DNA of 64,000 bases from Candidatus Omnitrophota bacterium (GTDB lineage Bacteria > Omnitrophota > Gorgyraeia > 2-01-FULL-45-10): positions 8,825 through 72,824 of the forward strand of contig JBAZKH010000008.1 of the NCBI GenBank assembly GCA_041650935.1, written 5' to 3'. Shown here piece after piece: positions 4,791 through 55,900 of the stretch; within the stretch, counting starts at the first letter, position 1; each line of letters opens with the position of its first letter. The translations under genes were made by a program, and so were the position numbers. The notes under the pieces were generated by a model, which worked only from the letters and a program-made list of their open reading frames with translations, had not been told where the DNA came from and ran no database searches.

Positions 4791-4832
4791 CTCTACCTTA
4801 CGAACAACTAACAACGCACAACGAGCAGCGAA

Positions 4833-6071
4833 CTACGGCGCCATCGTAAATATCCTACGAGCTATCTCAGGATACTTAGCGATGAACCGCAGTTCATCCT
4901 CGGTAAGAGGCTGCTGCGTGTGGACATTTGCGTACCTGACCAGTTCGAGTATCTTTGCGGCATCCTTTTCGTTCTTAAACTTCACTTCGAGCTTATCGTA
5001 AACGTTCCTGAAACCCTTTATGCCGCTATATTCGCCCGCTGTAATCTGCCTGCCGGTATCGATTATCTCCGGTTCGCCCCTGCCAAGCTCCTCGAAATCG
5101 TAGAGCTCGTAGTTGCGCCTGTCTTTAAGGGCTCCGTCGGCGTGTATACCGGATTCGTGCGCAAACGCGTTAGCGCCTACGCCCGGCTGGTTTACCGGGA
5201 TCGGCACACCAAAAGCGTAAGAGGCGTATTTGGCGATCTTCCAGGCATGCGAAAGCTTCACTCTCTCGTCCAGCACATATTTCCCGCCGAACCCGCTGGA
5301 ATATTTAACCGCAAGTATGACGCTCACCAGGTCCGCGTTACCCGCACGTTCGCCCATGCCGTTCACGGTCGTATTTATGTAGGCATCCACACCCGCATCT
5401 ATGGCGGCTTTGGCACCCGCAACGGAGCATGCCACAACCATGCCCAGGTCGTTATGACAATGCAGTTCTATGGGCAACCTCACCTCTTCGGCCAATATCT
5501 TGACGCGCGCGTATATCGTGAAAGGATCGTCGTATCCCAGCGTGTCGCAGTATCTTACCCTCTCTGCACCGGCCTTCTTCGCTGCTCTCGAGAATTTTAT
5601 GAGATAATCGAGATGCGTCCTCGACGCGTCTTCGGCGTTCACGCCGACATATTTTACGCCGAGTTTCCTGGCCGTACGCACCGCCTCGACCATCTCTTTT
5701 ATAACGTCTTCTTTTGTATACTTACCCTGGAACTTGCCGTTTATCATCTGGTCCGATGTTGAAATAGAGAGATTAAGGTTTTCGATCTTTGTCATCTTAC
5801 AGGCCTTTTCAACATCATCTTTGATGGCCCTTATCCAGCCGCTGAGCATGATGGGCTTGAGAACTCCCATTTTTGCCAGCTCAAGGTTGGCGTTCAGGTA
5901 ATTTGTCTCGTGACGGGTCACAGGGAAACCGAATTCGGACTGTGCTACACCCATATCGTTCAGATACATGTTTATCATCGTCTTCTGGAGCTTTGCCAGA
6001 CCGAGTCTCGATGTCTGGACACCGTCTCTATTGGTAACGTCGACTATATAAATCTTATTTTGCTTTGCCAC
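4833..6071 (-). CDS. DRE-TIM metallolyase, LeuA/NifV family (short homocitrate/citramalate/2-isopropylmalate synthase-like paralogue)
   Basis: It carries an HCHNDLG metal-binding motif and an RDGVQ N-terminal motif. At 412 aa it lacks the LeuA C-terminal regulatory domain. Confidence 0.7.
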   Translation of the reverse strand: MAKQNKIYIVDVTNRDGVQTSRLGLAKLQKTMINMYLNDMGVAQSEFGFPVTRHETNYLNANLELAKMGVLKPIMLSGWIRAIKDDVEKACKMTKIENLNLSISTSDQMINGKFQGKYTKEDVIKEMVEAVRTARKLGVKYVGVNAEDASRTHLDYLIKFSRAAKKAGAERVRYCDTLGYDDPFTIYARVKILAEEVRLPIELHCHNDLGMVVACSVAGAKAAIDAGVDAYINTTVNGMGERAGNADLVSVILAVKYSSGFGGKYVLDERVKLSHAWKIAKYASYAFGVPIPVNQPGVGANAFAHESGIHADGALKDRRNYELYDFEELGRGEPEIIDTGRQITAGEYSGIKGFRNVYDKLEVKFKNEKDAAKILELVRYANVHTQQPLTEDELRFIAKYPEIARRIFTMAP

Positions 6072-6094
6072 CTGCGCACCTTCTTTCCGATCTG

Positions 6095-6150
6095 TAAAAT
6101 TTGAATTTCGTATTTGTTTAGAATTTCGATATTCGTATTTCGGGTTTAAA
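6095..6150. repeat. family 2 half-element, copy F4 (reverse orientation)
   Basis: Its reverse complement reads CTTTAAACCCGAAATACGAATATCGAAATTCTAAACAAATACGAAATTCAAATTTTAC. Confidence 0.7.
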
Positions 6151-7732: not shown

Positions 7733-7752
7733 TACGCTATCTCCTTGCTTTC

Positions 7753-7881
7753 TTTAAATCCGAAATCCGAATATCGAAATTCTAAACAAATAAGAAATTC
7801 AAATTTTACAATTTTGAAACACTGGAGCTTGAAAAATTAGGATTTGTTTCGAATTTCGGATTTCGCGCTTCGGATTTATCC
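7753..7881. repeat. AT-rich palindromic intergenic element, family 2, copy F1
   Basis: The left half reads TTTAAATCCGAAATCCGAATATCGAAATTCTAAACAAATAAGAAATTCAAATTTTACAATTTTGAAA, and the inverted right half ends ...GATTTGTTTCGAATTTCGGATTT...CGGATTTATCC. Confidence 0.75.
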
Positions 7882-9014: not shown

Positions 9015-9090
9015 GCTCAACCCCTTGTTAGTCACCAGTTACCAGTTGCCGGTTACCAGCCCACGTAAGCGCTGGCTGCTGGCAACCGAC

Positions 9091-9687
9091 TCATTTTTTC
9101 TTCGTTATATTCTCTACCACCTCGTCGACTATACCGTATTGCCTGGCCTCCACTGCCGACATGAAATAATCCCTGTCGGTATCTTTCTGTATCTTATCAA
9201 GAGACTGTTTGGTATGTTTGACGAATATCTCCTCTATCTTCGTGCGCAGGTGAAGTATCTCTTTGGCCTGTATGCTTATATCGGCCGCCTGGCCCTGGAC
9301 CCCGCCCCACGGCTGATGGATCATGATCCGCGCATGCGGAAGCGCATAACGCTTACCCGCCGTGCCGGCGGCCAGAAGTACCGCACCCATGCTAGAAGCC
9401 TGCCCCACGCAGTATGTATTGACATCCGGTTTCACGAACTGGATGGTATCGTATATTGCCAGGCCGCTCGTGACTGAGCCGCCGGGCGTATTTATATAGA
9501 TGTTTATATCCTTCTCCGGATCTTCCATCTGCAGGAATAACAGCTGGGCTATGATCAGGTTCGAAACGATATCGTCTATAGGCGTGCCGATAAAAATTAT
9601 CCTGTCTTTCAAAAGGCGCGAGTATATATCATAAGCCCTCTCGCCCCTCCCGGTCGACTCTATTACCATAGGAACCAATACACTCAT
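9091..9687 (-). CDS. clpP: ATP-dependent Clp protease proteolytic subunit
   Basis: It has the ClpP catalytic motifs ([11 protein letters not shown]). The start [10 protein letters not shown] is preceded by AGGAGG. Confidence 0.9.
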
Positions 9688-9834
9688 GGGAACCTCCTTT
9701 TTAAATGCCAAAGCTCAAATGTCAAATAAATCTCAAATTTTCAAATATTAACTATCCAAACTGATGTTTCGAGATTTGATATTTTGATTTTGAATTTCAT
9801 TTGTCATTTGGATTTTGTCATTTGTCATTACTAT

Positions 9835-11115
9835 CTAACCCTTCTCCGTCACTTCCGCGTTCGCGAGAAGGAACTGTATCACTTTTCCTTCTCTGATCTT
9901 AGCCTTAAGGTCCTCGACCATATCCTCTTTCTCATAAAAGCCGCGTACCTCATCCTCGCTCTTTCCACTACGCGCAGAGATGGCTTTATATGCTTCGACA
10001 AGATCCTTTTCACTTGCCGCGATCTTCTCCGCCTCGGCTATCGTATCGAGTATGAATAAAAGACGCACTTTCCGGACCGCTTCGTCTTTGAATTTTCCCC
10101 TCAGTTCTTCATTCTTTTTGTCAAGATCTTCTTTTTTAAATCCCTTCCTGAACAGCTGCTCCTTCGCGTCCTCGACCATGAAGTCGAGCTGCTTTGCCGT
10201 AAAACTCGCGGGAACAACAAATACATTATCGTCTATAAGCTTATTGAGGATCTGGTTCTCGAGAGCTATCTCGACGTTGGCTTTCGCGCGGGCTTCAAGC
10301 TCCCGCAATATTTCCGCCTTCAGGTCGGAGAGCTTCTCCTTTGCAAAAATCTTCGCGAATTCGTCGTTTAGGTCGGGCAGTTCCCGCCGCTTTATCTCCT
10401 TGGCCCTGATGTGGTATTTGGCGAGTTTTCCCGCAATCGTCTTGTCCGGGTGTTTTTCGGGAACGAGCGCTTCGATATCGCGTTCCTCGCCCTTATTCAT
10501 ACCTATCATCTTTTCGATAAGCACGGGAACGAGCGAATCTTTTTCGAGGAAGAGCCAGAGGTTCTGCCTCGTCTTGTGGGCGGGCTTTCCGTCTACCGAA
10601 CAGTCCAGATCGCTCACAACATAATCACCCATCTGCGCCGGCCTGTCTTCAACGGCAATGTACTTGGCATTCAGTTCGCGCAGGTTATTGAGCATCCTTT
10701 CGACTTCGTCATCGGCAACCCTGGGCTTGTTCTTTTCCACCTTAAGGCCCTTATAACTCTTTAACTTAAAGACAGGCCTGGTATCGACCTTTGCGCTAAA
10801 CGAGAGCGCGGTCTTGCCTTCGAATTTCACATCGCTTATCTCGGGCAATGCAGCCGGCAATATCTTATGTTCGACAACAGCGTCCCTGTAGGCTTCCGGG
10901 ATGAGACGTTTCAGGGCCTCTTCACTGGCGCTCTTGCCATAGTGCTTTTCCACCAGTTCTCGAGGCGCCCTGCCTGTCCTGAACCCCGGGATATTGGCAT
11001 ATTTCGTAATCTCGTCATAGACTTCGTCGAAAGCCTTCTCGATATTTTCCTGCGATACCGTGATCTCGAGAAGTAAAGCGCATTCCCCGATAGATTTTAT
11101 CTTTGATCCCACCAT
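9835..11115 (-). CDS. tig: trigger factor
   Basis: The 426-aa protein has trigger-factor architecture and lies immediately upstream of clpP. Confidence 0.85.
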   Translation of the reverse strand: MVGSKIKSIGECALLLEITVSQENIEKAFDEVYDEITKYANIPGFRTGRAPRELVEKHYGKSASEEALKRLIPEAYRDAVVEHKILPAALPEISDVKFEGKTALSFSAKVDTRPVFKLKSYKGLKVEKNKPRVADDEVERMLNNLRELNAKYIAVEDRPAQMGDYVVSDLDCSVDGKPAHKTRQNLWLFLEKDSLVPVLIEKMIGMNKGEERDIEALVPEKHPDKTIAGKLAKYHIRAKEIKRRELPDLNDEFAKIFAKEKLSDLKAEILRELEARAKANVEIALENQILNKLIDDNVFVVPASFTAKQLDFMVEDAKEQLFRKGFKKEDLDKKNEELRGKFKDEAVRKVRLLFILDTIAEAEKIAASEKDLVEAYKAISARSGKSEDEVRGFYEKEDMVEDLKAKIREGKVIQFLLANAEVTEKG

Positions 11116-24809: not shown

Positions 24810-24949
24810 GCGCGCACTTTCTCCTTCCGTATTCTGTTTAACAAATGATTAAAAAAATGCTCTCCATCTATTGCCTTTTCCCGTTTCCTGTGGCATACTT
24901 GATATAGATAAAAGAGGGATACGATAGCGAAAGCCATCGAGGCCTATCA

Positions 24950-24990
24950 CCTCCAAAAGAGACCCCGCAATTGAGGTCTTTTTTGTTATC
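24950..24990. terminator. putative bidirectional intrinsic terminator
   Basis: AGACCCCGCAATTGAGGTCTTTTTTGTT has a hairpin followed by a T-run on the plus strand. On the minus strand the hairpin is followed by TCTTTTGG, downstream of the GT9 operon. Confidence 0.35.
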
Positions 24991-24994
24991 TACT

Positions 24995-25030
24995 CCGTAG
25001 TCACATCACAGTAGACTGATACGAAAAATT
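24995..25030. repeat. family 1 end fragment E plus the conserved 3' tail
   Basis: The sequence TCACATCACAGTAGACTGATACGAAAAATT matches the right inverted repeat of copy A plus its flank (TAGACTGATACGAAAAATT), and it abuts a stop codon. Confidence 0.55.
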
Positions 25031-26101
25031 TTACCTCCCTAAAATTTTCGCGGCCGCCGCAAGCACCTCATCGACCGTTACCGCCTCGAGACACTGAAAA
25101 CCTTTCGCGCAGTCATGCGCGAGACATTCTATGCAGCCGACATCCTTATGGAGCACCACATCGCGCTTGCCTGTCGGCCCCCAGCGCTGCGGCGAAAGCC
25201 CTCTGTCGTGCCTGCCGAATATCGCGATCACAGGCGTACCGACGGCGCACGCTATATGGACCGGTCCGGAATCGTTCGATATGAATAGCCGCGCGCGCCT
25301 CAATACGCTTGCCACATCCGCAACGCTCGTCCTGCCCGCGAGGTTCAGACAATTTTTCTTTAAGCGATTCGATACTCTATCGCCCAGTTCTTTATCCGCG
25401 GCGGAGGCTACAACTATTATCTTTACGCCGTATCGCTCGATCAAGGCCTGCGCGGCCCTGGCAAACTTATCGGGGCTCCACCTCTTCGAAGGGCAGCTGG
25501 CGCCGGGGTTTATTGCCACACAAAGATCGTCTTTACCGATACCCCCCTCGCGCAGCATCTCATCCACCCTCACTTCGGAATGGCCGTTCACGGGCATATA
25601 AAGAGGCTTATCTTTCGGTTCCAGGCCTGTATACCGCAATATATCGAGGGTATAATCGATCTCGTGCTTTAAGCCGTATTGCTTGGTATGCGGCAGGCGG
25701 GTGGTGAGCAAAAACCCCCATTTCCTGTTATACCCTACCGTCTCTGGGATCCCGGCCAGTGAAACCAGAAGGTGCGTCCTCTTCGTCGGGTGCAGGATAA
25801 GGGCTATGTCGAATTTTTTACGGCGTAACGAGCGGATGAAACCCAAATTTCTCAACAGCCCCTTCTCCCGCCCGTTCTTATCGTAGACTATGATTTCATC
25901 GAGGTAAGGATTGCCTTCCAGTATATCCTTGGCATATCTCCTCACCATAAAAGCGATATAGCCATCGGGGCAGACGTCGCGGACAGCCTTGATCACGGGA
26001 GTCGAGAGCAAGACATCCCCTATCCTGTCGAGCCTCACGATCAACACCCGCTTCCCTTCATGCCTTTGGATTTTGGATTTTGGATTTTGGATTTTATTCA
26101 T
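25031..26101 (-). CDS. ADP-heptose:LPS heptosyltransferase (GT9)
   Basis: It has the GT9 N-terminus (RVLIVRLDRIGDVLL) and C-terminal motifs. An alternative GTG start at about 26047 would place the GGATTTT x4 repeat in the 5' UTR. Confidence 0.8.
   Translation of the reverse strand: MNKIQNPKSKIQRHEGKRVLIVRLDRIGDVLLSTPVIKAVRDVCPDGYIAFMVRRYAKDILEGNPYLDEIIVYDKNGREKGLLRNLGFIRSLRRKKFDIALILHPTKRTHLLVSLAGIPETVGYNRKWGFLLTTRLPHTKQYGLKHEIDYTLDILRYTGLEPKDKPLYMPVNGHSEVRVDEMLREGGIGKDDLCVAINPGASCPSKRWSPDKFARAAQALIERYGVKIIVVASAADKELGDRVSNRLKKNCLNLAGRTSVADVASVLRRARLFISNDSGPVHIACAVGTPVIAIFGRHDRGLSPQRWGPTGKRDVVLHKDVGCIECLAHDCAKGFQCLEAVTVDEVLAAAAKILGR
26068..26095. repeat. heptanucleotide tandem repeat (GGATTTT) of 4 units at the 5' end of a GT9 gene
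   Basis: The sequence ggatttt x4 encodes codons 2 to 11 (KIQNPKSKIQ) if the gene starts at ATG 26101. With a GTG start at 26047 it lies in the 5' leader. Confidence 0.8.
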
Positions 26102-27071
26102 ATCCTTCGATCATCATCCTGGCGGTATCGAATACAAGATCGGGAGAGATAAGACGCATACATTCATAGTTCCGCACACATTGCGCCTTTTCGCATGGCG
26201 CGCACGAAAGTTTCTCTTTTATAACAACATCGAATTCGCCCATCGGTCCGTACTTGCGCGGATCCGTGGGACCGAACAGCGCCACCACCTTCACGCCTAC
26301 CGCCGATCCGAGATGGAGCGGCGCGCTGTCATTCGTTATTAGCAGTTTGGCGCGTTTCAGGAGTCCGGCCAGCTGTCTGACGTTGGTCCTGCCGACAAAG
26401 TCGTGGCCCTTATGTTTCATCCGCGCGGTTATCTCCTTTACTATCGCCTCATCTTCTTTAAGTCCGACGAAGACGACGCTTACGCCGCATTCCGCTATCA
26501 ACCTGTCGGCAACCTGCGCGAACCCGTCGGTCGTCCACCTTTTCAAATGACTCTTTGCGCCGGCGTTTATCACGACAACAGGGCCGGTAACACCGCTGTC
26601 TTTAAGGAGTCTGTCGATATGCGCATCGTCTTCGCTTGTAATGTGTATATAGGGAGATTCTTTAAGATTATCTATCCCTACGGATTTCAGTCTGTAGAGA
26701 TGGTGCTCTGTCTTATGCATAAGACTGCGCGGAAATTTTTGTATCGTCGCGGTCCTGAACCGCGGCCCGATGAGCAGAGGAAATACGGTATTACGTATAT
26801 CCACAACCAGGTCGTATTTCAATTTTTTAAGCTTGATCTGCAGCCGCCTCTTCTGGATAATCGGCATATGCTTATCATATATAATGACCTTGAATATATG
26901 AGGGTCCTTCTCGAATATCTCTTTACCCTGCGGACCGACCATCACATCACACCGCGCGCCCGGGAACTCGCCCGAAAGCGCCTTGATGACGGGCGTAGTA
27001 AGGATGATATCGCCTATGTTACTCAAGGTTATTACAAGCATTCTCTTTACTTGTGTTTTGTCGATTATCAT
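26094..27071 (-). CDS. ADP-heptose:LPS heptosyltransferase (GT9), second paralogue
   Basis: It has GT9 motifs (MLVITLSNIGDIILTTP). The probable start is MIIDKTQVKRM. The track ORF is over-extended to 27170. Confidence 0.8.
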   Translation of the reverse strand: MIIDKTQVKRMLVITLSNIGDIILTTPVIKALSGEFPGARCDVMVGPQGKEIFEKDPHIFKVIIYDKHMPIIQKRRLQIKLKKLKYDLVVDIRNTVFPLLIGPRFRTATIQKFPRSLMHKTEHHLYRLKSVGIDNLKESPYIHITSEDDAHIDRLLKDSGVTGPVVVINAGAKSHLKRWTTDGFAQVADRLIAECGVSVVFVGLKEDEAIVKEITARMKHKGHDFVGRTNVRQLAGLLKRAKLLITNDSAPLHLGSAVGVKVVALFGPTDPRKYGPMGEFDVVIKEKLSCAPCEKAQCVRNYECMRLISPDLVFDTARMMIEGYE

Positions 27072-29982: not shown

Positions 29983-32070
29983 CTATAGATACGGCCGCAT
30001 GGCCTCAAGTACTTCGTCGACCGTTATCCGCTTCATACATATAAAATTCTTTGCGCAGTTGGGACTGTAACACGGGCTGCATTTAAGTTCATCCTTCTTC
30101 GTTATGACCACGCAGTTCCCCGACGGCGGCGCATGCCGCGCGGGATCTGTGGGGCCGAAAAGCGCTATGCACGGAGTACCCACAGCCGCGGCTATGTGCA
30201 TCGGCGCGGAGTCCGGCGTAATATAGACCTTGAAATGCCCGATGAGGCCGGCGAGTTCCAGTATACTCGTCCGCCCTGCGGCTACGAGCGGCCGCGACTT
30301 AGCAGCCCTGGCTATGGCCCGGGCAAACTCCGCATCCTCTTCGGCTCCGGTCAGGACCGTCCGCAAATTGAACTCTTTGGCGAGCCTGTCGGATAGTTCG
30401 ACGATATTCAGGCTCGGCCAATTCTTCGTCACCCATCTGGATGACGCCCTGACATTCACTCCTACTAGCCCGGCAGACGGTGTCATCCATCCTTCCGCCA
30501 GCAGCTTATCGGCATGTTCCTTTTCCGATCCGGAGGGCCACAGCTCCAGGCGTTTATCCTGCGGCTTTATGGCTGCCATCCGCAGCGTCCTGAACTGGTG
30601 CTCGATCGGGTCGAGGTACGGCGCATCGTCCCGGAGGCGTTTGTTCAGAAGAAACGACAGTTTTTTATTGTCGTATCCGTAGCGAAGCGGCGCCAGGCTC
30701 AGTGCGGCAAGTATATGGCTGCGCTTCGAGTTCTGGAGATCGATAACGATATCAAAACAATGCTGCCGCAGTTCCCTGCCAAGGCGCCATAGTCCGGCAA
30801 TGCCGTGGTTTTTGCCGTTAAAATCGCAGACTATCCTTTCGTTTATATACGGGCACCTGTCGAGCGCCTCCTGTGATTGGACGCCGACCAGGACCTTTAT
30901 ATTGGCTTTCGGGTACCTGGCGCGTATCGCCCTGAGCGACGGCACGCTCAAAATAACGTCGCCTATAGCGCTCATCTTTATGACGAGGATATTCAGCGTC
31001 GCGACCGCCTCCTCATAGACCGCGAGCGTACGCCCCATCATCCTGTCGAGATTGAAATACGTTTCGACGCGCCGCCTCGATTCTATGGCTATATTTACCC
31101 AGAGCGTCCTCGCCCCGTAAAGCTCGGATATCTTAGCGGCTATATCTTTCGGATTTTGAGGCGCGCACAAAAGGCCCGTCTTCTTATCTTCAATGATGTC
31201 GACAACGCCGCCGACCTGCGTGGCAACCACCGGCACACCCGAGGCCTGGGCTTCTATAATAACCCTGCCGAATGCTTCCGGCGTTATTGTCGCGGATACC
31301 AGGACGTCGAGCCGGCTCATCACTTTCGGCACATCGTTGGTTGCCGGCAGAAAATCGATGACACTGGTCAACCCCAGCCTTCTTATCAAAAGCTCAAGGT
31401 CTTCTCTATATTTCTCCTTAGGCGCCGCGCCGGCTATTACAACCTTCAGATTCGGTATCTGGCGGCTCAGGATCGATATCGCTTTGATAAAATCAGCATG
31501 CCCTTTAAGCGGCGTTATCCTGGAGATCATGCCTACCGTAAAATATTCCGGCGAATGTGTCGACGGGTCCCTGAACGTAAACCTGTTCAGGTCCACGCCG
31601 CGCGGTATCAGGCGTATCCTGTCATACGGGACATTGAAATTGCTCACCATGTGCTTCGCCATTATGTTCGAAGCAACGATGACGTATTTGCCCCACCCCA
31701 TCGCCTCGCTCATCAGATGTTTCTTGTAATAGCCGTGGGCCGTCGTTATAAATGTCCTATTCGTCGACTTGCACGCGATATAGGCTATTAAAGCGGGTAC
31801 ACGCGAGCGCGCGTGGACAATGTCGATATCTTCCCTGCGGATTATTTCGCAGAGCGCTTTTATCATCCGCATCATACTAAAAACGGACTTTTTCCCGACA
31901 GGCAGATTGTAATGGCGAGCGCCTACGGCATCGAGTTCCCTCACGAGCCGGCCCCCGGCAGAGACCGTAATGGCCTTATGCCCATGCGCGACAAGGTACT
32001 TCGCGAGGTCTATAGTGCCGGTCTCGACTCCGCCGACATCCAGCGATGGAAGTATCTGCAGTATATTCAT
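29983..32070 (-). CDS. bifunctional glycosyltransferase: N-terminal GT4 fused to a C-terminal GT9 heptosyltransferase-like domain
   Basis: The first roughly 340 aa are paralogous to the neighbouring GT4 (VSATITPEAFGRVIIEAQA). The last roughly 340 aa have GT9 motifs (LNILVIKMSAIGDVILSVPS). Confidence 0.75.
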   Translation of the reverse strand: MNILQILPSLDVGGVETGTIDLAKYLVAHGHKAITVSAGGRLVRELDAVGARHYNLPVGKKSVFSMMRMIKALCEIIRREDIDIVHARSRVPALIAYIACKSTNRTFITTAHGYYKKHLMSEAMGWGKYVIVASNIMAKHMVSNFNVPYDRIRLIPRGVDLNRFTFRDPSTHSPEYFTVGMISRITPLKGHADFIKAISILSRQIPNLKVVIAGAAPKEKYREDLELLIRRLGLTSVIDFLPATNDVPKVMSRLDVLVSATITPEAFGRVIIEAQASGVPVVATQVGGVVDIIEDKKTGLLCAPQNPKDIAAKISELYGARTLWVNIAIESRRRVETYFNLDRMMGRTLAVYEEAVATLNILVIKMSAIGDVILSVPSLRAIRARYPKANIKVLVGVQSQEALDRCPYINERIVCDFNGKNHGIAGLWRLGRELRQHCFDIVIDLQNSKRSHILAALSLAPLRYGYDNKKLSFLLNKRLRDDAPYLDPIEHQFRTLRMAAIKPQDKRLELWPSGSEKEHADKLLAEGWMTPSAGLVGVNVRASSRWVTKNWPSLNIVELSDRLAKEFNLRTVLTGAEEDAEFARAIARAAKSRPLVAAGRTSILELAGLIGHFKVYITPDSAPMHIAAAVGTPCIALFGPTDPARHAPPSGNCVVITKKDELKCSPCYSPNCAKNFICMKRITVDEVLEAMRPYL

Positions 32071-32201
32071 AAGTCATTCCGCAATAAATTTTTCGCCGTC
32101 AGTCCGGCGCTTTTTCCGGCGGCCTGCAATTGATATGTTTAAGATTTTATGTCCCGCCTTTTATTTCCCGTTTCCCTGGCCAAATTTTTCGAAAACTCAG
32201 G

Positions 32202-32335
32202 AATATTATTTGGCGATGTGGCGAGCTTAGGCGTAAAAATTGCGAGGCAGCGTCCGAGCAATTTTTCTCGAGCGTAAATTTTACATGGTTAAAATTTACG
32301 CGTCCTAAGCTCACCACATCGCCAAATAATATTAG
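32202..32335. repeat. structured intergenic element with terminal inverted repeats, family 1, copy A (complete)
   Basis: It has terminal inverted repeats (GAATATTATTTGGCGATGTGGCGAGC and GCTCACCACATCGCCAAATAATATT) and two internal hairpins, AAAAATTGC[GAGGCAGCGTCCGA]GCAATTTTT and GCGTAAATTTTA[CATGGT]TAAAATTTACGC. Confidence 0.8.
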
Positions 32336-32357
32336 ACTGATACGAAAAATTATCTCC

Positions 32358-34301: not shown

Positions 34302-35307
34302 CCAGCTGCTCCTTCCCTGAAATAATATCCATTTCTATGACAAGCGTCATCACGGGATAGTCCCCAAAAGATAACGACATCCTGCGTAATTTGACTTCGT
34401 CCTTCTCGGTCGTAAGGATAAAATCGAACGATCTCTCATCGCATCTCTTCACGATAGGTCCGGTATCGGCCTGGCTGTAATTATAGTGATCGGCGAAGAC
34501 GATCTCTTCGGCGATGTCGGCGCCCAGGCGGCGGGCAGTATCGCTAAAGTAGCCCGGATCGCCTATACTCGACAAAAGAATTACGCGCTTACCCTTAAGA
34601 AAGTTTAAAGCGAGCTCCTTCCGCGCCTTCAGGTCGTAGAGACAGACGGGCTTGTGAAGCGCTTCGAGAAAGACGAGTGCGCCATTCAGTCTCTTTAACT
34701 CATCCTTCACCTGCACCAGCGCCGGACCCGGCTTATCGACTTTTGTAAAGACTATTACCGATGCGCGCTTTACGGCCTCCACAGGCTCCCTCAATATGCC
34801 CCGAGGGAAGAGCCGGCCGTTGCCGAACGGGTTGCGGGAATCGACCAGAATTATATCGAGATTGCGCTCGAGCTCCCAGTGCTGGAAACCGTCATCCAGC
34901 ACCGCGGTATCGCTGCCATAAAGCTTTATCGCCTTGTGCGCCGACTTCGTACGGTCTTCGCCGACAAGGATGGGCGTATCGGCAAGTTTGCGCCTGAGAA
35001 GAGTCTGTTCGTCCCAGCCGTAACCGCGGATAAGAACGCTCGCCTTCTTGCCAAGCTCCTCGTCGAGCAGCTTCACCAGCCGTATCACAAATGGTGTCTT
35101 GCCGGTACCGCCCAGAGTCAGGTTCCCGACGGATATTATCTTAAGCGGCACCCGGACGGATTTGAATATATGCGTCTTGTAAGCCAACCGCCGCAGTATA
35201 AGAGCAGCCCCGTACGCAAACGACAGGATGTAGAGAAAGAATTTTATAGGCGCATATATAGCGTCGTCACGCCTATCGGTCATCAATGAATATATGAATT
35301 CACGCAT
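34261..35307 (-). CDS. lpxK: tetraacyldisaccharide 4'-kinase
   Basis: It has the LpxK P-loop (ISVGNLTLGGTGKTP). The start is probably MREFIYSLM, 2 nt after the waaA stop. Confidence 0.85.
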   Translation of the reverse strand: MREFIYSLMTDRRDDAIYAPIKFFLYILSFAYGAALILRRLAYKTHIFKSVRVPLKIISVGNLTLGGTGKTPFVIRLVKLLDEELGKKASVLIRGYGWDEQTLLRRKLADTPILVGEDRTKSAHKAIKLYGSDTAVLDDGFQHWELERNLDIILVDSRNPFGNGRLFPRGILREPVEAVKRASVIVFTKVDKPGPALVQVKDELKRLNGALVFLEALHKPVCLYDLKARKELALNFLKGKRVILLSSIGDPGYFSDTARRLGADIAEEIVFADHYNYSQADTGPIVKRCDERSFDFILTTEKDEVKLRRMSLSFGDYPVMTLVIEMDIISGKEQLVDRLRSLYSRKGA

Positions 35308-36577
35308 TGAGGAATACCGCCATTTCGCCCAAGACCCGTCCCGTAGCGCCCATATTGTCGACGACAACCTGTTTGGCGGCTCTGCCCATCTCAAGGCGCC
35401 GCTTTTCATCCGTCAGCAGGTTGTAGAGGGCGGGTACCAGGTCATCACCGCTATCGACCTGCGCGGCCGCGGATGAGGCCAGAAAGGCCTCGGCTATATC
35501 CTTAAAATTGAACATATGCTGGCCGAATATTACGGGCTTCTCATGGACAGCAGGCTCTATCGGGTTCTGTCCGCCGTGTTTTATAAGGCTGCCTCCGACG
35601 AAGACTATGGTCGCTATAGAATAGAAGTCTCCCAGGCGGCCGATGGTGTCGAGAATGTAGATCCGTCGTTCGTCGTTCGTCGTTCGTCGTTCGTCGGAGC
35701 CGGATAACCGGACCGGCTGGAAGCCGAGTTTCTTTGCGGCCTCGGCGACCTCGCCCGCTCTTTCGATATGGCGGGGAGCGATCAGCAGTTTAAGCTTCGG
35801 GAAATCTTCGATTAAATCTTTATATGCAGCGATAACGGCGCATTCTTCGCCCGGATGCGTCGACCCTGCCACTATAAGCTCGTCTCCCGTAGCCATCCCC
35901 AGCTCTTTTTTTAATACGTCGCCGCTTATCCTGCCCGCCTTGACCCGGATATCGAATTTCATATTCCCGGCGACCTTTACTCTTTCGGGCCTGGCGCCAA
36001 GAGCTATTATCCTGTCCGCGTCCATCTTCGACTGCATGCAAAGAACGTTAATGTTCCGCAATATCTTCCTTAAGAACCGGCTTACCATCTCGTACTTCCC
36101 AAAAGACCTGTCCGATATCCTGCCGTTGATGAGTATGGCCGGTATGGCGCGGCGTTCTATCTCTTTTAAAAAATTAGGCCATATCTCAGTCTCGACCATG
36201 ATGTACATATTAGGCCTCACTATACCTATAACTTTCTTCACTATAAATGAAAAATCGAGCGGAAAATATATCACAACGGCATCATCCGCAAATAACTTCT
36301 TTGCCAGGTCGCCGCCCGTCTTAGTTATCGTCGAAAAAACTATCGGCCGCGAGGGGAACTTCTCGCGCATAAGCGGGATAAGGCTCCTGCATAACGCAAC
36401 CTCCCCTACGCTCACCGCCTGAATCCATATCGCGCCGCGCGCCTTCGCAAGCGCCGCGCGCTTCGCCCTGCCGTATACGCCGAACCGCTCGAGAAAATCC
36501 CTGTGCAGTTTGCCTTTGAATATCAGCGTCGGTAGATAGAAGATCGAGAATAACGCGAATCCTATGTCGTACAACAT
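35300..36577 (-). CDS. waaA: 3-deoxy-D-manno-octulosonic acid transferase
   Basis: The 425-aa protein is of the KdtA family (GT30). It contains the GTCGTTC heptamer repeat. Confidence 0.85.
   Translation of the reverse strand: MLYDIGFALFSIFYLPTLIFKGKLHRDFLERFGVYGRAKRAALAKARGAIWIQAVSVGEVALCRSLIPLMREKFPSRPIVFSTITKTGGDLAKKLFADDAVVIYFPLDFSFIVKKVIGIVRPNMYIMVETEIWPNFLKEIERRAIPAILINGRISDRSFGKYEMVSRFLRKILRNINVLCMQSKMDADRIIALGARPERVKVAGNMKFDIRVKAGRISGDVLKKELGMATGDELIVAGSTHPGEECAVIAAYKDLIEDFPKLKLLIAPRHIERAGEVAEAAKKLGFQPVRLSGSDERRTTNDERRIYILDTIGRLGDFYSIATIVFVGGSLIKHGGQNPIEPAVHEKPVIFGQHMFNFKDIAEAFLASSAAAQVDSGDDLVPALYNLLTDEKRRLEMGRAAKQVVVDNMGATGRVLGEMAVFLNA
35665..35696. repeat. heptanucleotide tandem repeat (GTCGTTC) of about 4.6 units inside the waaA coding sequence
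   Basis: The sequence is gtcgttc gtcgttc gtcgttc gtcgttc gtcg. In the reading frame it encodes DERRTTNDERR. Confidence 0.85.
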
Positions 36578-37555: not shown

Positions 37556-37610
37556 ATTTTACGAACGCTTTCCACTCTTGTTTTCCCAGTAAAATTTTTC
37601 GCATCCGTTG

Positions 37611-37742
37611 AAATGTGATGTGGCGATGTGGTGAGCAGGGCGTTAAAAGTTCGAGGCAGCGTACGAGAACTTTTATCGAGCGAAATTTTCACATGGCTGA
37701 AAATTTCGCGTCCTAAGCGAGCCACATTGACACAGCACATTT
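37611..37742. repeat. structured intergenic element, family 1, copy B
   Basis: It has the same architecture as copy A, with hairpins TAAAAGTTC[GAGGCAGCGTACGA]GAACTTTTA and GCGAAATTTTCA[CATGGC]TGAAAATTTCGC, and compensatory stem changes relative to copy A. Confidence 0.8.
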
Positions 37743-37772
37743 ACTGCTACATCGAAAAATTTTACGCACTCC

Positions 37773-41584: not shown

Positions 41585-41632
41585 ATCTTTCTGTATCGAA
41601 ATTTATTAGTCCTGTCCCCTTCTATCATCTCC

Positions 41633-41700
41633 CGAGCGCAATTTTCACATGGCTGAAAATTACGCATCCCTGCGAGATGCCAACCCCGAGAGGGGATTCC
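41633..41700. repeat. family 1 partial copy D plus an adjacent GC-rich hairpin
   Basis: The partial copy reads GCGCAATTTTCACATGGCTGAAAATTACGC and is followed by CCCCGAGAGGGGATTCCCCTCGGG. Confidence 0.6.
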
Positions 41701-41717
41701 CCTCGGGATCGAAAAAA

Positions 41718-42035: not shown

Positions 42036-42111
42036 ATATAGCCTTTCCGCAATTTCAAATTTCAAATACTGCAAATACTACCAGGGAAGGTTGGGATTTG
42101 GAATTTTGAAT

Positions 42112-42624
42112 TTATTTGTCATTACACTTCGCTATCTTTATTATCTCTTCGACAGCCTGCCGCGCCGTAAGTTTGCCCGTGTCTATAGAATGATCTGCTT
42201 TTGCATATAGAGGCGCCCTTTTAGCAAGGAGCGTCCGTATCTTCAGCTTCGGATCCTCGACGTTAAGGAGCGGCCTGTGCTTATATTTCTTCGTCCGCGC
42301 CATTATCGCTTCTTCATCGGCCGTGAGGCATATAACGATACCGCCGGACTTCAAGCTCTCCATATTCTCCGGCCTTATAACCACCCCTCCGCCCGTATCG
42401 ATTACGAGGTTATCCTGGACGGAAAGATCGCGCACAACCGCGCTTTCGACATCGCGGAAATAATCTTCACCCTCTTTGGTAAATATCTCATTTATCGTCC
42501 GCCGTTCCCTCTTTTCGATAAGGTCATCGATCGAGACGTAGCGAAGCCCGAGCTCATTTGCGATCTTTATCGCGATCGTCGTCTTGCCCGTGCCCATAAA
42601 ACCGATCAGAACAATGTTACGCAT
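42112..42624 (-). CDS. aroK: shikimate kinase
   Basis: It has the motif MRNIVLIGFMGTGKTT. Confidence 0.85.
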   Translation of the reverse strand: MRNIVLIGFMGTGKTTIAIKIANELGLRYVSIDDLIEKRERRTINEIFTKEGEDYFRDVESAVVRDLSVQDNLVIDTGGGVVIRPENMESLKSGGIVICLTADEEAIMARTKKYKHRPLLNVEDPKLKIRTLLAKRAPLYAKADHSIDTGKLTARQAVEEIIKIAKCNDK

Positions 42625-44714: not shown

Positions 44715-44807
44715 ATTAAATCCGAAATTCGAATATCGAAATTCTAAACAAATACGAAATCCTAAATTCCAATTTGGAAAATTCAGATTTCGCGATTCGG
44801 ATTTATC
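44715..44807. repeat. family 2, copy F2
   Basis: It reads TTAAATCCGAAATTCGAATATCGAAATTCTAAACAAATACGAAATCCTAAATTCCAATTTGGAAAATTCAGATTTCGCGATTCGGATTTATCC. Confidence 0.75.
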
Positions 44808-47272: not shown

Positions 47273-47305
47273 AGTCTCACCTCAAAATAAATTTTTCGCT
47301 GTAAC

Positions 47306-47440
47306 AATAATATGATATGTCAATGTGGTTCGTTCAGGACGCACAATTTTCAGCCATGTGAAAATTGTGCTCCGTAAAAGTTCTCGTACGCTGCCTCGAA
47401 CTTTTAAGGCCTGCGCTCACCACATCGCCATATCACATTC
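47306..47440. repeat. structured intergenic element, family 1, copy C (core inverted)
   Basis: It is the reverse complement of copy B over about 125 bp. Its second hairpin is GCACAATTTTCA[GCCATG]TGAAAATTGTGC. Confidence 0.8.
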
Positions 47441-47457
47441 CTGACTTGTAGAAAAAT

Positions 47458-48450: not shown

Positions 48451-48475
48451 TTCTTTTAACCCCTTTCTTTGTTTT

Positions 48476-48580
48476 GACTTTAAATTCGAAACTCTAAATC
48501 CGAAATCCTAAACAAATACCAATTTTCAAAATTCGAATTTGTGATTTGTTTCGAATTTCGATATTTGAATTTCGTGCTTA
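48476..48580. repeat. family 2, copy F3
   Basis: It contains CTAAATCCGAAATCCTAAACAAATACCAATTTTCAAAATTCGAATTTGTGATTTGTTTCGAATTTCGATATTTGAATTTCG. Confidence 0.7.
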
Positions 48581-49093: not shown

Positions 49094-49195
49094 ATCCCTC
49101 GCTAACTGGGTTTTAGGTCTTAGCTCATAGGTCATAGCTCATAGGCGTTGGGAAACGCGGCCCTATGACCTAAGAGCTATGAACTAAGAGCTAAC

Positions 49196-50878
49196 TTACG
49201 CCAGCCCTCCGTCCATCATCTTATTTATCGCCTGTCCCGCAGGCACCATCGGGAAGACATTCTCCTCTTCCTCAACGTGAAAATCGATAAAAACACAATT
49301 ATCAATCTTGAGCGCGCGTTCGATGGCCGGACGCACCTCTTCGGTCTTCGTGACCCTTATACCTGCCGCACCGTAGCTCTCCGCCAGCTTTACAAAGTCG
49401 GGGCATGTTCCTCCCAGGCACGTGTAAGAATAACGTTTGCCGTAGAATAACTCCTGCCACTGCCTGACCATTCCGAGATAAGAGTTATTCAGTATCGCAA
49501 CTTTGACGGGCAGTTTATTGATAACCGCCGTCGCGAGTTCCTGGATATTCATCTGTATCGAACCGTCACCTGCGATGTCGAAGACCACCGCCTTGGGCTT
49601 GCCTATCTGGGCGCCGATTGCCGCGGGGAAACCATAGCCCATCGTCCCCAACCCGCCGGATGAAAGCATCGTCCTGGGTTTAAGGAACTTGTAGAATTGC
49701 GCGGCCCACATCTGGTGCTGGCCAACTTCCGTACAGATTATCGCCTCACCCTTCGTGGCGCGCCATATCTCTTCCAGGACATACTGCGGCTTGATCTTAC
49801 CGCCGGTCTTATATTTCAGCGGATGTTTCGCCTTCCAATCCTCGACCCGCTTTATCCAATCTTTCGTATCCGGCCTCTTGACGGCTTTATTAAGACGCTT
49901 CAACACCATTTTAGCATCACCGACTATCGGGATATCGACTTCGACCGACTTCGAAACGCTGGCAGGGTCGATATCTATGTGGATGACCTTGGCATGCGGG
50001 GCAAATTCATCGACTTTACCGGTAACCCTGTCGTCGAATCTCGCGCCCACGGAAATTATCAGGTCCGACTCCATTATCGAATGGTTCGCATAGGCCGTGC
50101 CGTGCATGCCGAGCATGCCGAGTGACAATTCATGGTCCTGCGGGAAAACGCCCAGCCCAAGGAGCGTCATCGTCACCGGTATCTCGTTCTTTATCGCGAG
50201 CTCACGCACCTCTTCCGACGCGCCGGATATGACAGCGCCGCCGCCTACGTAAAGTATCGGCCGCCTCGATTCGGAGATAGCTTTCGCCGCCCGTTTTATC
50301 TGGCCCGGGTGACCCTCATAAGTGGGCTTGTACCCGCGGATATTAACGCTATCGGGGTAGATAAATTCGGTCTCCTGCATCTGGATATCGGAGGGCAGGT
50401 CTATCAATACCGGGCCCGGCCGGCCTGTGGACGCTATATGAAACGCCTCTTTTATGATCCGGGCAAGGCCCTTTATGTCTTCGATAAGATAATTATGCTT
50501 CGTTATCGGCCTGGTTATGCCGGTTATATCGGCTTCCTGGAACGCATCGTTGCCTATTAAGAACGACTTTACCTGGCCGGTTATCGCAACCATCGGGACC
50601 GAATCCATATAAGCCGTGGCAATGCCTGTGACGAGGTTAGTCGCTCCCGGTCCGGAAGTTGCCAGGCAGACGCCGACCTTACCGGTCGCTCGGGCATAAC
50701 CGTCCGCAGCATGAGCGGCGGCCTGCTCGTGACGCGTCAGTATCAGCTTTATCGGCGCGTTATAAAGCGCGTCGAAAATAGGCAGTACCTGACCGCCGGG
50801 ATAGCCGAATATGACGTCGACACCCTCTTTCCTCAAGCATTCGATCAGTATGCGCGCACCAGTCATTTTCATAGTCAA
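49196..50878 (-). CDS. ilvB: acetolactate synthase large subunit
   Basis: The 560-aa protein has thiamine-diphosphate enzyme motifs. Confidence 0.9.
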
Positions 50879-52909: not shown

Positions 52910-55900
52910 TTACGCAGCCCTTAGAAGAACTTCCTGTAAATGCTTAAGGCGGATTTGTTCGCCGGTATCGGCCGGTATGATAGGTTTGAGGATAAAGTTC
53001 AGCTTATTTATGAAGTCGACGGGGTTCTCTTTAAGCTCTCTTAATGGGATATACCTGCTTGCGCAACGCTGGGTCAAAAGACTATATAACCTGTAGAAAG
53101 ATTCGTTGTCATCGTTCAGGTAGGCCCTGCCCACCCCTATCAATCCTTCCAGATTGGTCAGGTTCCCCGCCTTAACCCTCTGACCATCAAGATTGATATA
53201 AATAACCCTGGCCTTTAATCTGTTAAGTTCTTTTATCTGGGCTTCGTTCAAACGCTCCAGGGGCAGGATCGTAACGGTGTTGTCGTCTATATTCTCACGG
53301 GCAAAAGATACAAGTTCGTCTATATTATCCTCGAAACTCACCCTGTCTTTTGTCAGCTTCGATATCTCCGTAAGGAATGGCTCCTGGCCGGGCGCGGCAT
53401 ACCCCGACCATGCTTTAATCGTGTAATCCTTTTCCGAGAGGCTCGCCTTTCCATATAGATAATCGACTATATGAAGCTTGATTGCTTCTCCGGCAAACGG
53501 GCATATCGCCGGAGGGATATTGCCCTGGCGCAATAACGGCTTATCATCTCCTTTGCCGGTCTTCAGTTTTACGCTGATCGCCACGTTAATTAAATTACGG
53601 GCATGTTCCCGCGTCTTATTATTAAGGTCTATCATCATATCGGAAAATTTATACTTTCCGTTTACATTCACAAATATACCGAGTTCCACCAAAGGCTTGA
53701 CCGCCTGATTATAAACCCTGGCCGCAAAATGTCGCTTGCCGCGGGGCTCGGTCATGCCGGGGCAGATATCGCTTTTAATGCTGAATCCTTCGCCCAGCGC
53801 CTTCTCAAGCAGCCCCCCGGGCCCGTTATCATATTTTATCATCATCAAAAACTCCGCCGGGTTACCCATTAGCCATCGGGAAACCGCGGGATCTTGAGTT
53901 GCGGAATCTTTCGCGGGATCTTGCCGGGTTATGTCATGTGGTCTTCCCGGAATCTTACCCGGCAAGGGCACGCTGCCCGGAATCTTACCCGGCAAAGGCA
54001 TGAGTTGCGGAATCTTGCCGGGTAAGGTCATGTGGTCTTCCCGGATCTTACCCGGCAAGGGCATGTCACCCGGCGCAGGCGCATCTGTGGACTTTTCACC
54101 AAAACGATCTAAGCGTATATACATTTCATCGATCAAACCCTCAGACTCTTTGATATCGACTGCGCCGGGATACATTGCCGCAAACTGCCGGTGAAATTTC
54201 TGAGCATCGCCGGTCGACGCCGGATGAGTGCGGTAATATTTCCCATCTCCGTTTTTCTTCATCTCTAAAATAGCCGCGCTCATAAGTGAATAGGCAACCC
54301 ACCGGTATTGTCTTCTTACATACATACCGTTCGACTCAAAATGATCGCCAATTAGTTTATAATCATAAAGCCCGACCGGCTCATCACCGTAATATCCGAT
54401 GACCGCAATATATTCTCCGATATCCCATTCCCGCTTTGTTTCGCTCGGCTTCTGCGCAGCCTCATGCGAAAGAGCGGCAAACCAGGCATTGCATTCTTCG
54501 ATCAACGAATCCAACCGCACGTCAGATTTTTGTTCGTCTGACAGGTTTTTATACAAGCGGAATGTTACTGATGGAAGAACCTTTTTAGAGGTATCCGAGA
54601 TTAGTCCATTCTGCTGCGCCTGCCCACCGCTCGCAAAATACGGTTCGCCGCCGGCTTGCTTGATTACAGACATCTGACGCTCATCTGCCAGCGTCTTGCC
54701 GGGTACCGGCATGAGTGTAGCTTCGGCATCCGCGGAATCTTTCGCGGAATCTTGCTGTGCGGAATCTTGCCGGGTAAGGTCATGTTGCCTTCCCGGAATC
54801 TTACCCGGCAAGGGCACGCTGCCCGGAATCTTGCCGGGTAAGGTCATGTTGTCTTCCCGGATCTTACCCGGCAAGGGCATGTTGGTATCCAGAGCGTCAC
54901 GTTTTGCGTCCCCATCTTCCTGCGGGCATTCTCCTGCAAGCGTTGCTAACCTTGCTTCAAAAGAAGATTCACTTAAGTTTTCCAATAGATAGGTCAGCTG
55001 TAAATTGTTCGGATGCCGCACAAGCTCTTTTCTGATTGCCGTTTCGACTTCGCGAGGAAATATCTTAGCGATCTCGACAAGGGCCGAATACGCACAACTG
55101 CTCGCATGATCTGGAGGATAACCTACGGCAAATATTAAATCATCTATCGCAGATCTGCCGAGAGCTATTATCTGCTTTTTCAGGCCTAATCTCTTATCTG
55201 CATCAGCATTATCCAACTTACTAAGTAGATCTTCCGTTTTCAGGGACGTGCCACTTTGGGACATTTCGCTATCCGCGTCGGCCGCACCTTCATCTAGCGC
55301 AACCTTTGTCCCATCGGATTGGACGGCACCCACTGCAGAAATCAGCTCCCATTTATACTCGTTTTTCCTTACTTCCTTAAAATCAAATGCCGCGGCAATT
55401 TTGCCGATCCATCCTCCATCCGAAGTATCTATAGCTTCCACAGATCGCAATTCCGGCAATGCTCTTAACCACGATAAAGCAGCAGCAAATAGCTTTGTGC
55501 CTACGCCCGCCTTTTGATAAGATCCCCGCACCGTCATTTCATCTATAAACCCTTCCCCCGCGTCATCTGTATGGCTTACTATCGCATATCCTATAACCTC
55601 ATTATTATTTCTCGCCACAAAAACTTTCCCCGGCCTCATCCACTTGCCATCCATTATCGACCTAAGGTAACGATTAGAAGATTCTGCGTAGGAAGGATGC
55701 ATATTACCGCCCGTAAGATAACCTTCTTCCCAAATTTTAGTAATTGCACCTATGTCGCCCGGATTTGCCGGTTCTATAATAGGCTCTGCGGGTCCTAGGG
55801 ACGGCTCTACCGGTCGCGCGCCTTGCTGTACGGCTGGGATGGCACCTTCTGGACCGTCCTTGTATTCCGCACCGCTCGCAAAATGTGGCTGGCCGCCGGC

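Follow-up and report, generated by a model that had tools for sequence, protein, structure and literature searches.

In a 64,000-nucleotide stretch of a Candidatus Omnitrophota genome (assembly GCA_041650935.1, contig JBAZKH010000008.1, positions 8,825 to 72,824; hereafter the window), a perfect array of the heptamer AAAATCC lies just inside the start of a gene of the GT9 family of glycosyltransferases, predicted to encode a heptosyltransferase II-like enzyme of lipopolysaccharide (LPS) synthesis. Arrays of this kind are present phylum-wide: they are site-specific within a few LPS genes, homogeneous within species, divergent between species, and constrained in both frame and length. We favour, at about even odds, the reading that the array is a self-homogenising heptamer repeat at a permissive site, resembling the short tandemly repeated repetitive (STRR) sequences of cyanobacteria, and the comparative record is more in keeping with a repeat of this sort, tolerated and self-maintaining, than with one selected for high-frequency on/off switching.

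The program Tandem Repeats Finder (TRF) reports the array on the forward strand as TTTGGAT x4.4 with period 7, at 26065-26095, with 100% matches and a score of 62. An exact scan of all 64 kb for units of 5-12 nt in at least three perfect copies returned two arrays, this one and CGTCGTT x4.7 at 35664-35696. The two methods agree with a preliminary description of this DNA, which had noted four perfect GGATTTT units just after the ATG of a GT9 gene; the peptide given there for the repeat was also right, although its span is codons 3-12 (K3 to Q12) and not 2-11. Markov-1 shuffles of the window contained zero perfect period-7 arrays, and a search for AAAATCCx3 with up to three mismatches found the 26065-26095 array as its sole match in the window, where 0.01 were expected. 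Read on the reverse strand, the gene opens ATG AAT (AAAATCC)4 AAA GGC ATG AAG GGA AGC GGG GTG TTG ATC GTG AGG, and the GT9 gene upstream of it ends GAA GGA TAT GAA TAA (Table 1). Taken alone, this is an ordinary-looking candidate phase-variation repeat, and the case it makes for switching is weak.

A 7-nt unit is not divisible by three, and the array lies inside the open reading frame (ORF), downstream of a conserved ATG, which is the structure that a slipped-strand switch requires. When the gene was rebuilt in silico with 0-8 units, full-length protein was obtained solely at n = 1, 4 and 7; with other unit numbers translation ends after 9-24 codons, beside the GTG at codon 19, and gain or loss of a single unit abolishes the full-length product (17 aa at n = 3, 16 aa at n = 5). 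The ATG that overlaps the upstream stop (ATGA[AG]TAA) is kept among relatives; in all 12 genuine cases, whose tails span 12-81 nt, it shares the frame of the core, and so it does in each of the nine whose tails exceed 12 nt. The codon equivalent to codon 19 is GTG in the window alone, GTT, GTC or GTT in the nearest relatives and ATA, ATT or ATC elsewhere, and therefore cannot be a general start. From the conserved in-frame ATG, the non-conserved GTG, and the in-frame linkers found at 59 of 94 related junctions (below), we conclude that the array is translated. The GTG had earlier been proposed as the real start, with the repeats in a 21-nt leader; besides being specific to the window, it is separated from the upstream stop by 46 nt (26096-26094 to 26047-26045) and from the end of the repeat by about 20 nt. 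The repeat is thus not upstream of the true start, as it would be in a leader- or promoter-spacing switch, and of the two routes suggested for length-dependent expression, the frameshift holds in silico and leader spacing does not, the conserved ATG being upstream of the array. The window-specific GTG, with its Shine-Dalgarno (SD)-like GAAGGG, might permit weak re-initiation.

Three GT9 genes stand in tandem, each stop overlapping the next start, and the array gene is the last of them; the same window also carries hldE, waaA and lpxK, and nearly all of its genes are on the reverse strand. The gene 3 protein is identical to P0001, annotated as 'lipopolysaccharide heptosyltransferase II' in a Candidatus Omnitrophota metagenome-assembled genome. 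Its GT9 identity, as assigned in the preliminary description, is borne out by a match of residues 88-332 to PF01075 (Glyco_transf_9; 127.2 bits, gathering cutoff 22) and by a score of 139.2 bits with the heptosyltransferase II equivalog TIGR02195, barely above the cutoff of 134.6. Because that cutoff is narrowly passed and the heptosyltransferase III profile TIGR02201 follows closely (133.6, against a cutoff of 170.2 that it misses), it is uncertain exactly which acceptor the enzyme uses; ADP-heptose transfer to the LPS inner core is a putative role, in keeping with the locus context. Position 1 of TIGR02195 falls on residue 18, and an AlphaFold model made with a 30-sequence alignment gives residues 1-14 a predicted local distance difference test score (pLDDT) of <50 and has its first strand at residues 18-22, so that the repeat encodes a predicted disordered tail ahead of the fold (strand beta-1). 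Elsewhere in the window, a 695-aa ORF at 29983-32070 resembles a GT4-GT9 fusion, with an N-terminal half like the neighbouring GT4 and a C-terminal half with the GT9 motif ILVIKMSAIGDVIL.

The junction between genes 2 and 3 was compared in 94 distinct species-level DNAs, picked by homology to the downstream domain alone and without regard to frame, and in about 150 orthologous proteins. At 59 of the 94 junctions the two genes are fused in one ORF of about 680 aa (e.g. L019:1511-3568 and L030:1481-3541, among loci L001-L080) and the tract is an in-frame linker; in the clade of the window the genes are split, with stop and start overlapping, and elsewhere the linker is a heptamer array or sometimes an in-frame inverted repeat. 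Some 120 orthologue N-termini follow the pattern M[NSD]K, variable insert, [YF]K[KR]-ILIVR[LT]DRIGDV, with tail lengths peaking at 4, 9 and 16 aa. The inserts correspond to heptamers translated through all three frames: a single heptamer can encode at least 9 of 10 residues in 21 of 70 tails or linkers, and at a looser 8-of-10 threshold this rises to 29 of 70, with 29 different units, one each; no single-heptamer-encodable stretch was found in a control consisting of the remainder of the same 114 proteins. Self-match of the junction DNA is enriched at lags 7 and 14 (0.329 at lag 7 vs about 0.25-0.28), with 7 the best lag at 25 of 94 junctions. Many orthologues are without an array (MSKK or MNKR tails) or have arrays of unrelated GC-rich units. 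We take the ATGAATAAA context as ancestral at the array site. GC-rich inverted repeats (e.g. GGGGACAGGTTGAAC, CCTGCCTGTCCGGCAGGCAGG and GGGGACTGTCCCC) are also seen in frame within the GT9-GT9 linker or tail, in L035, L073, L063, L064, L054, L043, L016 and L013, and hairpin-type sequence is thus translated as part of a protein.

A heptamer array in waaA had also been mentioned in the preliminary description, and it is confirmed as the second perfect array of the window. It matches the pattern of the GT9 array: fixed site, fixed length, species-specific unit. Among WaaA orthologues the loop length is equal in 60 of 87, a few differing by -7 or +7 aa, and the loop is encodable by one heptamer in 19 of 89, with more than 12 different units across species. 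Proteins that are 83-88% identical carry unrelated units (e.g. GCAGTAC, GAACGAC, CACGATT and GAGATAC), one and the same unit can be found in proteins of just 57-77% identity, and no length polymorphism was found within WaaA clusters at >=90% identity. Further arrays are present in the interdomain loop of the upstream GT9 (L030, L036, L063 and L038; in L030 an in-frame insert of the AAAATCC family, translated KIQNPKSKIKNKSKIQ) and at its N-terminus (L070). ManC (mannose-1-phosphate guanylyltransferase) carries in-frame arrays of about four units (L101:2390-2427, AAGCCGC; L107:3003-3040, GTCACAC; L127:2929-2968, GTCACCA), all at the same position, about codons 160-185, in genes that adjoin GT9 paralogues. 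In total, GT9 ORFs contain 16 coding arrays in 327 kb and the other ORFs 3 in 258 kb, each of these in ManC; the loci sampled centre on LPS, their flanking families are mostly LPS-related as well, and arrays that share a homologous site do not count as independent events. Coding arrays were absent from the 41 orthologues of HldE and from the 36 of a 312-aa family.

Period 7 is over-represented well beyond these genes. Under one uniform criterion the window has four arrays at lag 7, none at the other lags from 6 to 15, and none in shuffles; the same criterion applied to 161 loci (689 kb) yields 30 arrays at lag 7 vs 5, 5, 1 and 3 at lags 6, 8, 9 and 10, with at most 5 at each of lags 6 and 8-15. 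Period 7 is likewise the commonest TRF period in the window. The units AAATCCG, AAATTCG, AAATGAC and AAAATCC belong to a family, AAAWYCN, whose triple repeat has 17 matches in the window vs 0.33 expected and which is also present in loci of other Omnitrophota species; the similar stretches pointed out earlier near 2040-2080, 9780-9835 and 42090-42125 exist and are members of it. In the AAAWYCN hairpins of the spacers (Table 1), the A-rich arm consists of the unit family and the other arm of its complement. No complementary arm was found near the 26065-26095 array, and the start region is unstructured (z = +0.7). The 64 kb therefore show the attributes of STRR-like repeats and of heptanucleotide long simple sequence repeats (SSRs), namely excess of period 7 and dispersed related units, mainly intergenic and some in hairpins; since the host is a Candidatus Omnitrophota and the units differ from the canonical ones, the array works like an STRR yet stands outside the named cyanobacterial families.

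Several other repeats share the spacers with these. The AAATCCG/AAATTCG hairpins form a family of about 90-135 nt located just 5' of SD or start sites, which includes also 6072-6145 and 1990-2075 and has conserved ends ..AAATCCGAA ... TTCGGATTTAA..; a scan of the window with Rfam gave no match. Two strong hairpins, at 49105-49200 (z = -6.6) and 9025-9095 (z = -2.7), have arms with 7- or 14-nt periodicity (AGCTCTT AGTTCAT... / GGTAACT...) made of units unlike AAAWYCN. A single unstructured array on the forward strand, ACGAACA x5.4 at 4800-4837, lies just past the stop of the gene at 4833-6071, and its unit, in the opposite orientation, differs by a single mismatch from the unit family of waaA. 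Long inverted repeats of another intergenic family, unrelated to these (32071-32357, 37556-37772, 47273-47457, 41585-41717 and 24810-25030), begin right after stops with AATTTTTCG(T/A).. and have GCGATGTGGTGAGC...GCTCGCCACATCGCC-type arms around a AAATTTTCAGCCATGTGAAAATTT core; each could be a non-coding RNA or a miniature inverted-repeat transposable element. Finally, a giant 3694-aa ORF at 52910-63994, a repeat-rich protein of a kind common in Omnitrophota, has imperfect repeats some 30-35 and 64 nt long (CCGGAATCTTACCCGGCAAGGGCATG...), with TRF arrays at 53947-54065, 54760-54879, 57708-57805, 58497-58626 and 60904-61005.

Table 1. Coordinates, in window positions, of the array, its host locus, and related features.
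Feature	Position	Strand	Remarks
Perfect heptamer array (AAAATCC)x4.4	26065..26095	-	TTTGGAT/GGATTTT on + strand; codons 3-12, encodes KIQNPKSKIQ
ATG start, GT9 gene 3	26099..26101	-	overlaps stop of preceding gene (ATGAATAA)
TAA stop, preceding GT9 gene	26094..26096	-	final 2 bases are first 2 bases of array
GTG, codon 19, then TTG	26045..26047	-	alternative start proposed earlier; possible fallback/re-initiation codon; not conserved
TGA, frame from n = 0, 3, 6	26041..26043	-	overlaps GTGTTGA
TGA, frame from n = 2, 5, 8	26058..26060	-	10 nt ahead of GTG
GT9 gene 3, 356 aa, heptosyltransferase II-like	25031..26101	-	family profile from residue 18
GT9 gene 2, 325 aa	26094..27071	-	ATG at 27071 overlaps gene 1 stop as ATGA
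GT9 gene 1, 336 aa	27068..28078	-	starts MKRILIV, without tail
Second perfect heptamer array, x4.7 (GACGAAC/AACGACG on coding strand)	35664..35696	-	in frame in waaA (35300-36577) loop, DERRTTNDERR, about codons 294-305
Intergenic hairpin	7745..7880	-	arms are AAATCCG/AAATTCG runs and complement; z = -4.2
Intergenic hairpin	9712..9834	-	AAATGAC/AAAATCC/AAATTCA units
Intergenic hairpin	44715..44800	-	AAAWYCN family
Intergenic hairpin	48455..48560	-	AAAWYCN family
Short intergenic run AAATTCAAAATTCCAAATCC	42075..42113	-	AAAWYCN family

Copy number was followed among the relatives. No out-of-frame allele was found in the 94 junction DNAs or in the roughly 150 orthologous proteins; copy-number polymorphism that includes such alleles is thus not seen among relatives, and there is no second sequence of the window species on record. 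An exact-protein look-up of both start variants in public assemblies returned no record, and a scan of metagenome contigs for the exact array flanks with 1-9 units gave 0 matches. In the sister species represented by L001 (85% aa identity), the 18-codon tail is shared and its four units read AAAATCC AAATGAC AAAATCC AAAATCC; the tract is identical to that of the window at 28 of 31 positions, compared with 55% at third codon positions and with 8 of 17 in the remaining tail. Length differences between close relatives are always in-frame, at 7 or 12 aa: tails of proteins at least 82-90% identical differ by 7 aa, or three units (P0005/P0150 and P0030/P0047), and those of P0081/P0146 by 12 aa, the whole array of 36 nt. 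In one cluster all 22 members have 16 codons, and the DNA aligns without indels and with dense substitutions within the array. Of the phase-variation switch envisaged in the preliminary description, the dependence of frame on unit number therefore stands, while the relatives show no out-of-frame allele and little copy-number polymorphism.

Several candidates for OFF or frameshifted alleles were rejected. Some orthologues have 'truncated' N-termini; for P0112/L081 the DNA has an in-frame ATG and a 16-codon tail, so the truncation reflects the start chosen by the gene caller, and the same probably applies to P0023, judging by gene spacing. Compensated frameshifts were considered for tails of the P0117 cluster, in which the DNA alignment has substitutions only and zero indels. 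L016, L055 and L022, considered as frameshifted fusions, are separate genes with their own starts; L022 is without the ATG and keeps in-frame GTGs.

In the reading that we favour, the array would be a slippage-prone heptanucleotide microsatellite in the translated, predicted disordered N-terminal tail of a heptosyltransferase II-like GT9, and one local case of a lineage-wide heptamer class akin to the cyanobacterial STRRs and to 'long SSRs' of 5-11 nt. Omnitrophota heptamer arrays occupy intergenic spacers, often as hairpin arms, and, in LPS-core genes, a small number of constant positions that appear permissive: at the junction or in the linker of adjacent GT9s, in the interdomain loop of the upstream GT9, and in loops of WaaA and ManC. 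Replication misalignment within an array, through slippage and length-neutral copying between neighbours, would keep the units alike; the unit sequence would drift between species; and purifying selection on the host protein would hold the array in frame, stop-free, and near a fixed length. The array would then be a mutational hotspot for loss of the GT9 enzyme, and in that sense a potential switch.

Known repeats of the same period are broadly in line with this. Cyanobacterial STRRs are 7-bp tandem units, dispersed in the genome, mostly intergenic, able to form hairpins between co-transcribed genes, and of no known function (PMC2670836). The Omnitrophota arrays are similarly dispersed, tandem, and hairpin-forming, but are found in another phylum, with other units, and several are in-frame ORF arrays at conserved sites and lengths. 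According to Mrazek et al. 2007, as represented in PMC4679880, heptanucleotide repeats are the most abundant of the long SSRs (5-11 nt class) in some genomes, mostly those of non-pathogens, and polymerase slippage with a footprint of about 7 nt has been proposed for them. Dominance of the heptanucleotide class is shared with the Omnitrophota; coding regions in that survey, as represented there, favour units that are multiples of three, whereas the Omnitrophota heptamers persist in frame in conserved enzymes. The favoured reading is consistent with this slippage idea, with the hairpin-forming STRRs, and with the tolerated insertions of the TAACTGA heptamer at protein peripheries (below).

Other observations weigh against it. 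Homogenisation by misalignment is something that we infer. The unit types of WaaA do not follow the protein tree, where simple in-place drift predicts otherwise, and perfect arrays persist at ancient sites. The 28/31 identity of the tract to that of L001, set against 55% at third positions, indicates that the tract is not evolving as free neutral sequence. Every coding array found belongs to an LPS or polysaccharide gene (GT9, WaaA and ManC), as contingency loci would show, in a sample that is LPS-centred. Consensus assemblies, moreover, cannot show minority OFF subpopulations.

A true contingency locus, selected for its mutability, is a possible but rather unlikely alternative. Slipped-strand gain and loss of units would toggle the third heptosyltransferase and alter the LPS core, for example in escape from phage or host, and the arrays of waaA, the other GT9 genes and manC would form a combinatorial set. 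Such loci are known elsewhere, the lic and lgtC genes of Haemophilus influenzae being contingency loci with tetranucleotide repeats. A heptamer precedent is found in Neisseria pglE, a glycosyltransferase gene listed as phase variable, in which (CAAACAC) is repeated 4-24 times and one allele has four units (PMC5320596). The Omnitrophota array resembles pglE-type SSR contingency loci in its non-triplet unit, in its place near the 5' end of the coding sequence of a glycosyltransferase for surface glycans, and in that unit number sets the frame; it is also perfect over 4.4 units. The repeat structure is kept at the same sites phylum-wide while the units change, as if the repeat itself were selected, and is retained where neutral decay would be expected; the tract conservation against L001, the restriction, in this LPS-centred sample, of coding arrays to polysaccharide genes, and the presence of 2- and 5-unit alleles in relatives (P0047/P0030) all point the same way. 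Known phase-variable loci are, however, highly polymorphic in length, with a wide range of copy numbers and out-of-frame alleles common among strains, whereas here the arrays are short (4-5 units), the length is nearly fixed (the 16-aa class, and 60/87 WaaA loops), the sister species likewise has four units, and the relatives show no OFF allele. The same unit families also fill intergenic hairpins, where a frameshift is impossible, and in the window the nearby GTG with its SD-like GAAGGG could blunt the OFF state. The waaA gene is normally essential in most Gram-negative bacteria, which makes an OFF switch there implausible. The host, furthermore, belongs to an uncultured environmental phylum and its array is known here from sequence, unlike the established SSR contingency loci.

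A broader form of selection, which we also regard as possible though improbable, is that the repeat structure itself is what is selected, with Omnitrophota actively maintaining heptamer arrays of about 31-36 nt at fixed LPS-core sites (GT9 junction or linker, GT9 interdomain loop, WaaA loop and ManC). The arrays would then be either phylum-wide frameshift switches that diversify the surface of uncultured, possibly host-dependent nanobacteria, or the outcome of a dedicated mechanism for rewriting or homogenising heptamer tracts. Either would explain the occurrence of completely different units at identical length in close relatives (83-88%) and of shared units in distant ones.

That the array is a cis-acting nucleic-acid element, an A-rich, G-free AAAWYCN run that acts at the level of RNA (or DNA) and is translated incidentally, seems doubtful. 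It could form an unstructured region for translation initiation or coupling, or a multi-site platform for a post-transcriptional regulator, as has been proposed for the TAACTGA heptamer direct repeats of Beggiatoaceae; these are found in marine Beggiatoaceae, some Cyanobacteria and Bacteroidetes, in 2-6 copies near starts, mostly just 5' of them, and occasionally at the very start or end of proteins (e.g. MurG), where they are read as insertions tolerated at protein peripheries (MacGregor 2015, PMC4679880). The Omnitrophota arrays are likewise heptamer direct repeats near start codons, but use a variety of units, contain no stop in any of the three frames and are translated, whereas TAACTGA is a single unit with stop codons in its forward orientation. 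The position of the array exactly at the stop/start overlap, where translational coupling operates, the unstructured start region, the recurrence of the unit family beside stops and starts in spacers of this and other species, and the nucleotide conservation of the tract against L001 would all suit such an element. Against it, many orthologues do without the array or have unrelated GC-rich units, arrays are also found deep inside ORFs (in the loops of the upstream GT9 and WaaA), and neither an Rfam match nor a candidate binding protein was identified.

An in-frame insertion of a mobile, hairpin-type miniature element, of which the array would be an arm or remnant tolerated because the frame is kept, is slightly more doubtful still. 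The array shares the AAAWYCN family with the AAATCCG/AAATTCG intergenic hairpins, the L001 array is a mosaic of AAAATCC and AAATGAC that matches window spacers at 9712-9834 and about 2060, and linkers of L035, L073, L063, L064, L043, L016 and L013 have in-frame inverted repeats; the whole array (36 nt) is present or absent between proteins at least 90% identical, and unit types are incongruent with the protein tree. The region 26040-26110, however, is without a complementary arm, terminal repeat or target-site duplication, most junction arrays elsewhere have units unrelated to any visible hairpin, and no transposase or other mobilising function was found. Rickettsia palindromic elements, which Ogata et al. 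reportedly described in 2000, are said to be palindromes of 100-150 bp with a conserved sequence, located between genes or in frame at surface-exposed permissive sites of conserved proteins. The Omnitrophota repeats are similarly found between genes and in frame at permissive sites, but they are tandem heptamers of 30-36 nt with variable units. Both an RNA-level role and a mobile-element origin would be compatible with the favoured reading of a tolerated, self-homogenising array.

Least of all do we credit a switch in which the gene starts at the GTG (26047) and the length of an untranslated leader containing the repeat tunes expression: the GTG/TTG codons are preceded by the SD-like GAAGGGAAG and VLIVRLDRIGDV matches the GT9 profile start, but this reading is largely refuted by the restriction of the GTG to the window, by the conserved ATG in frame through tails of 12-81 nt, and by the tract being an in-frame linker of a fused protein at 59/94 junctions.

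No publication that connects Omnitrophota with heptanucleotide repeats or with phase variation turned up in a literature search. A single array fits known kinds; to our knowledge, as judged from that search, the phylum-wide pattern of fixed sites, fixed length and variable units in conserved LPS enzymes is undescribed. For annotation, it matters that gene callers pick differing starts at the GT9 junction, and that many 'two-gene' and 'fused' GT9 calls differ solely at the linker.

Conserved enzymes are normally kept free of non-triplet repeats. In the Omnitrophota, in-frame heptamer arrays are retained phylum-wide with site and length the same, units turn over between close relatives, and one host gene, waaA, is usually essential. 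If a mutational drive is responsible, the arrays would be a clean natural system for the concerted evolution of microsatellites under frame constraint, and would bear on the long-unexplained 7-nt bias of repeats such as the STRRs and the heptanucleotide long SSRs. If selection is responsible, the biology of contingency loci would extend from host-adapted pathogens to environmental candidate phyla.

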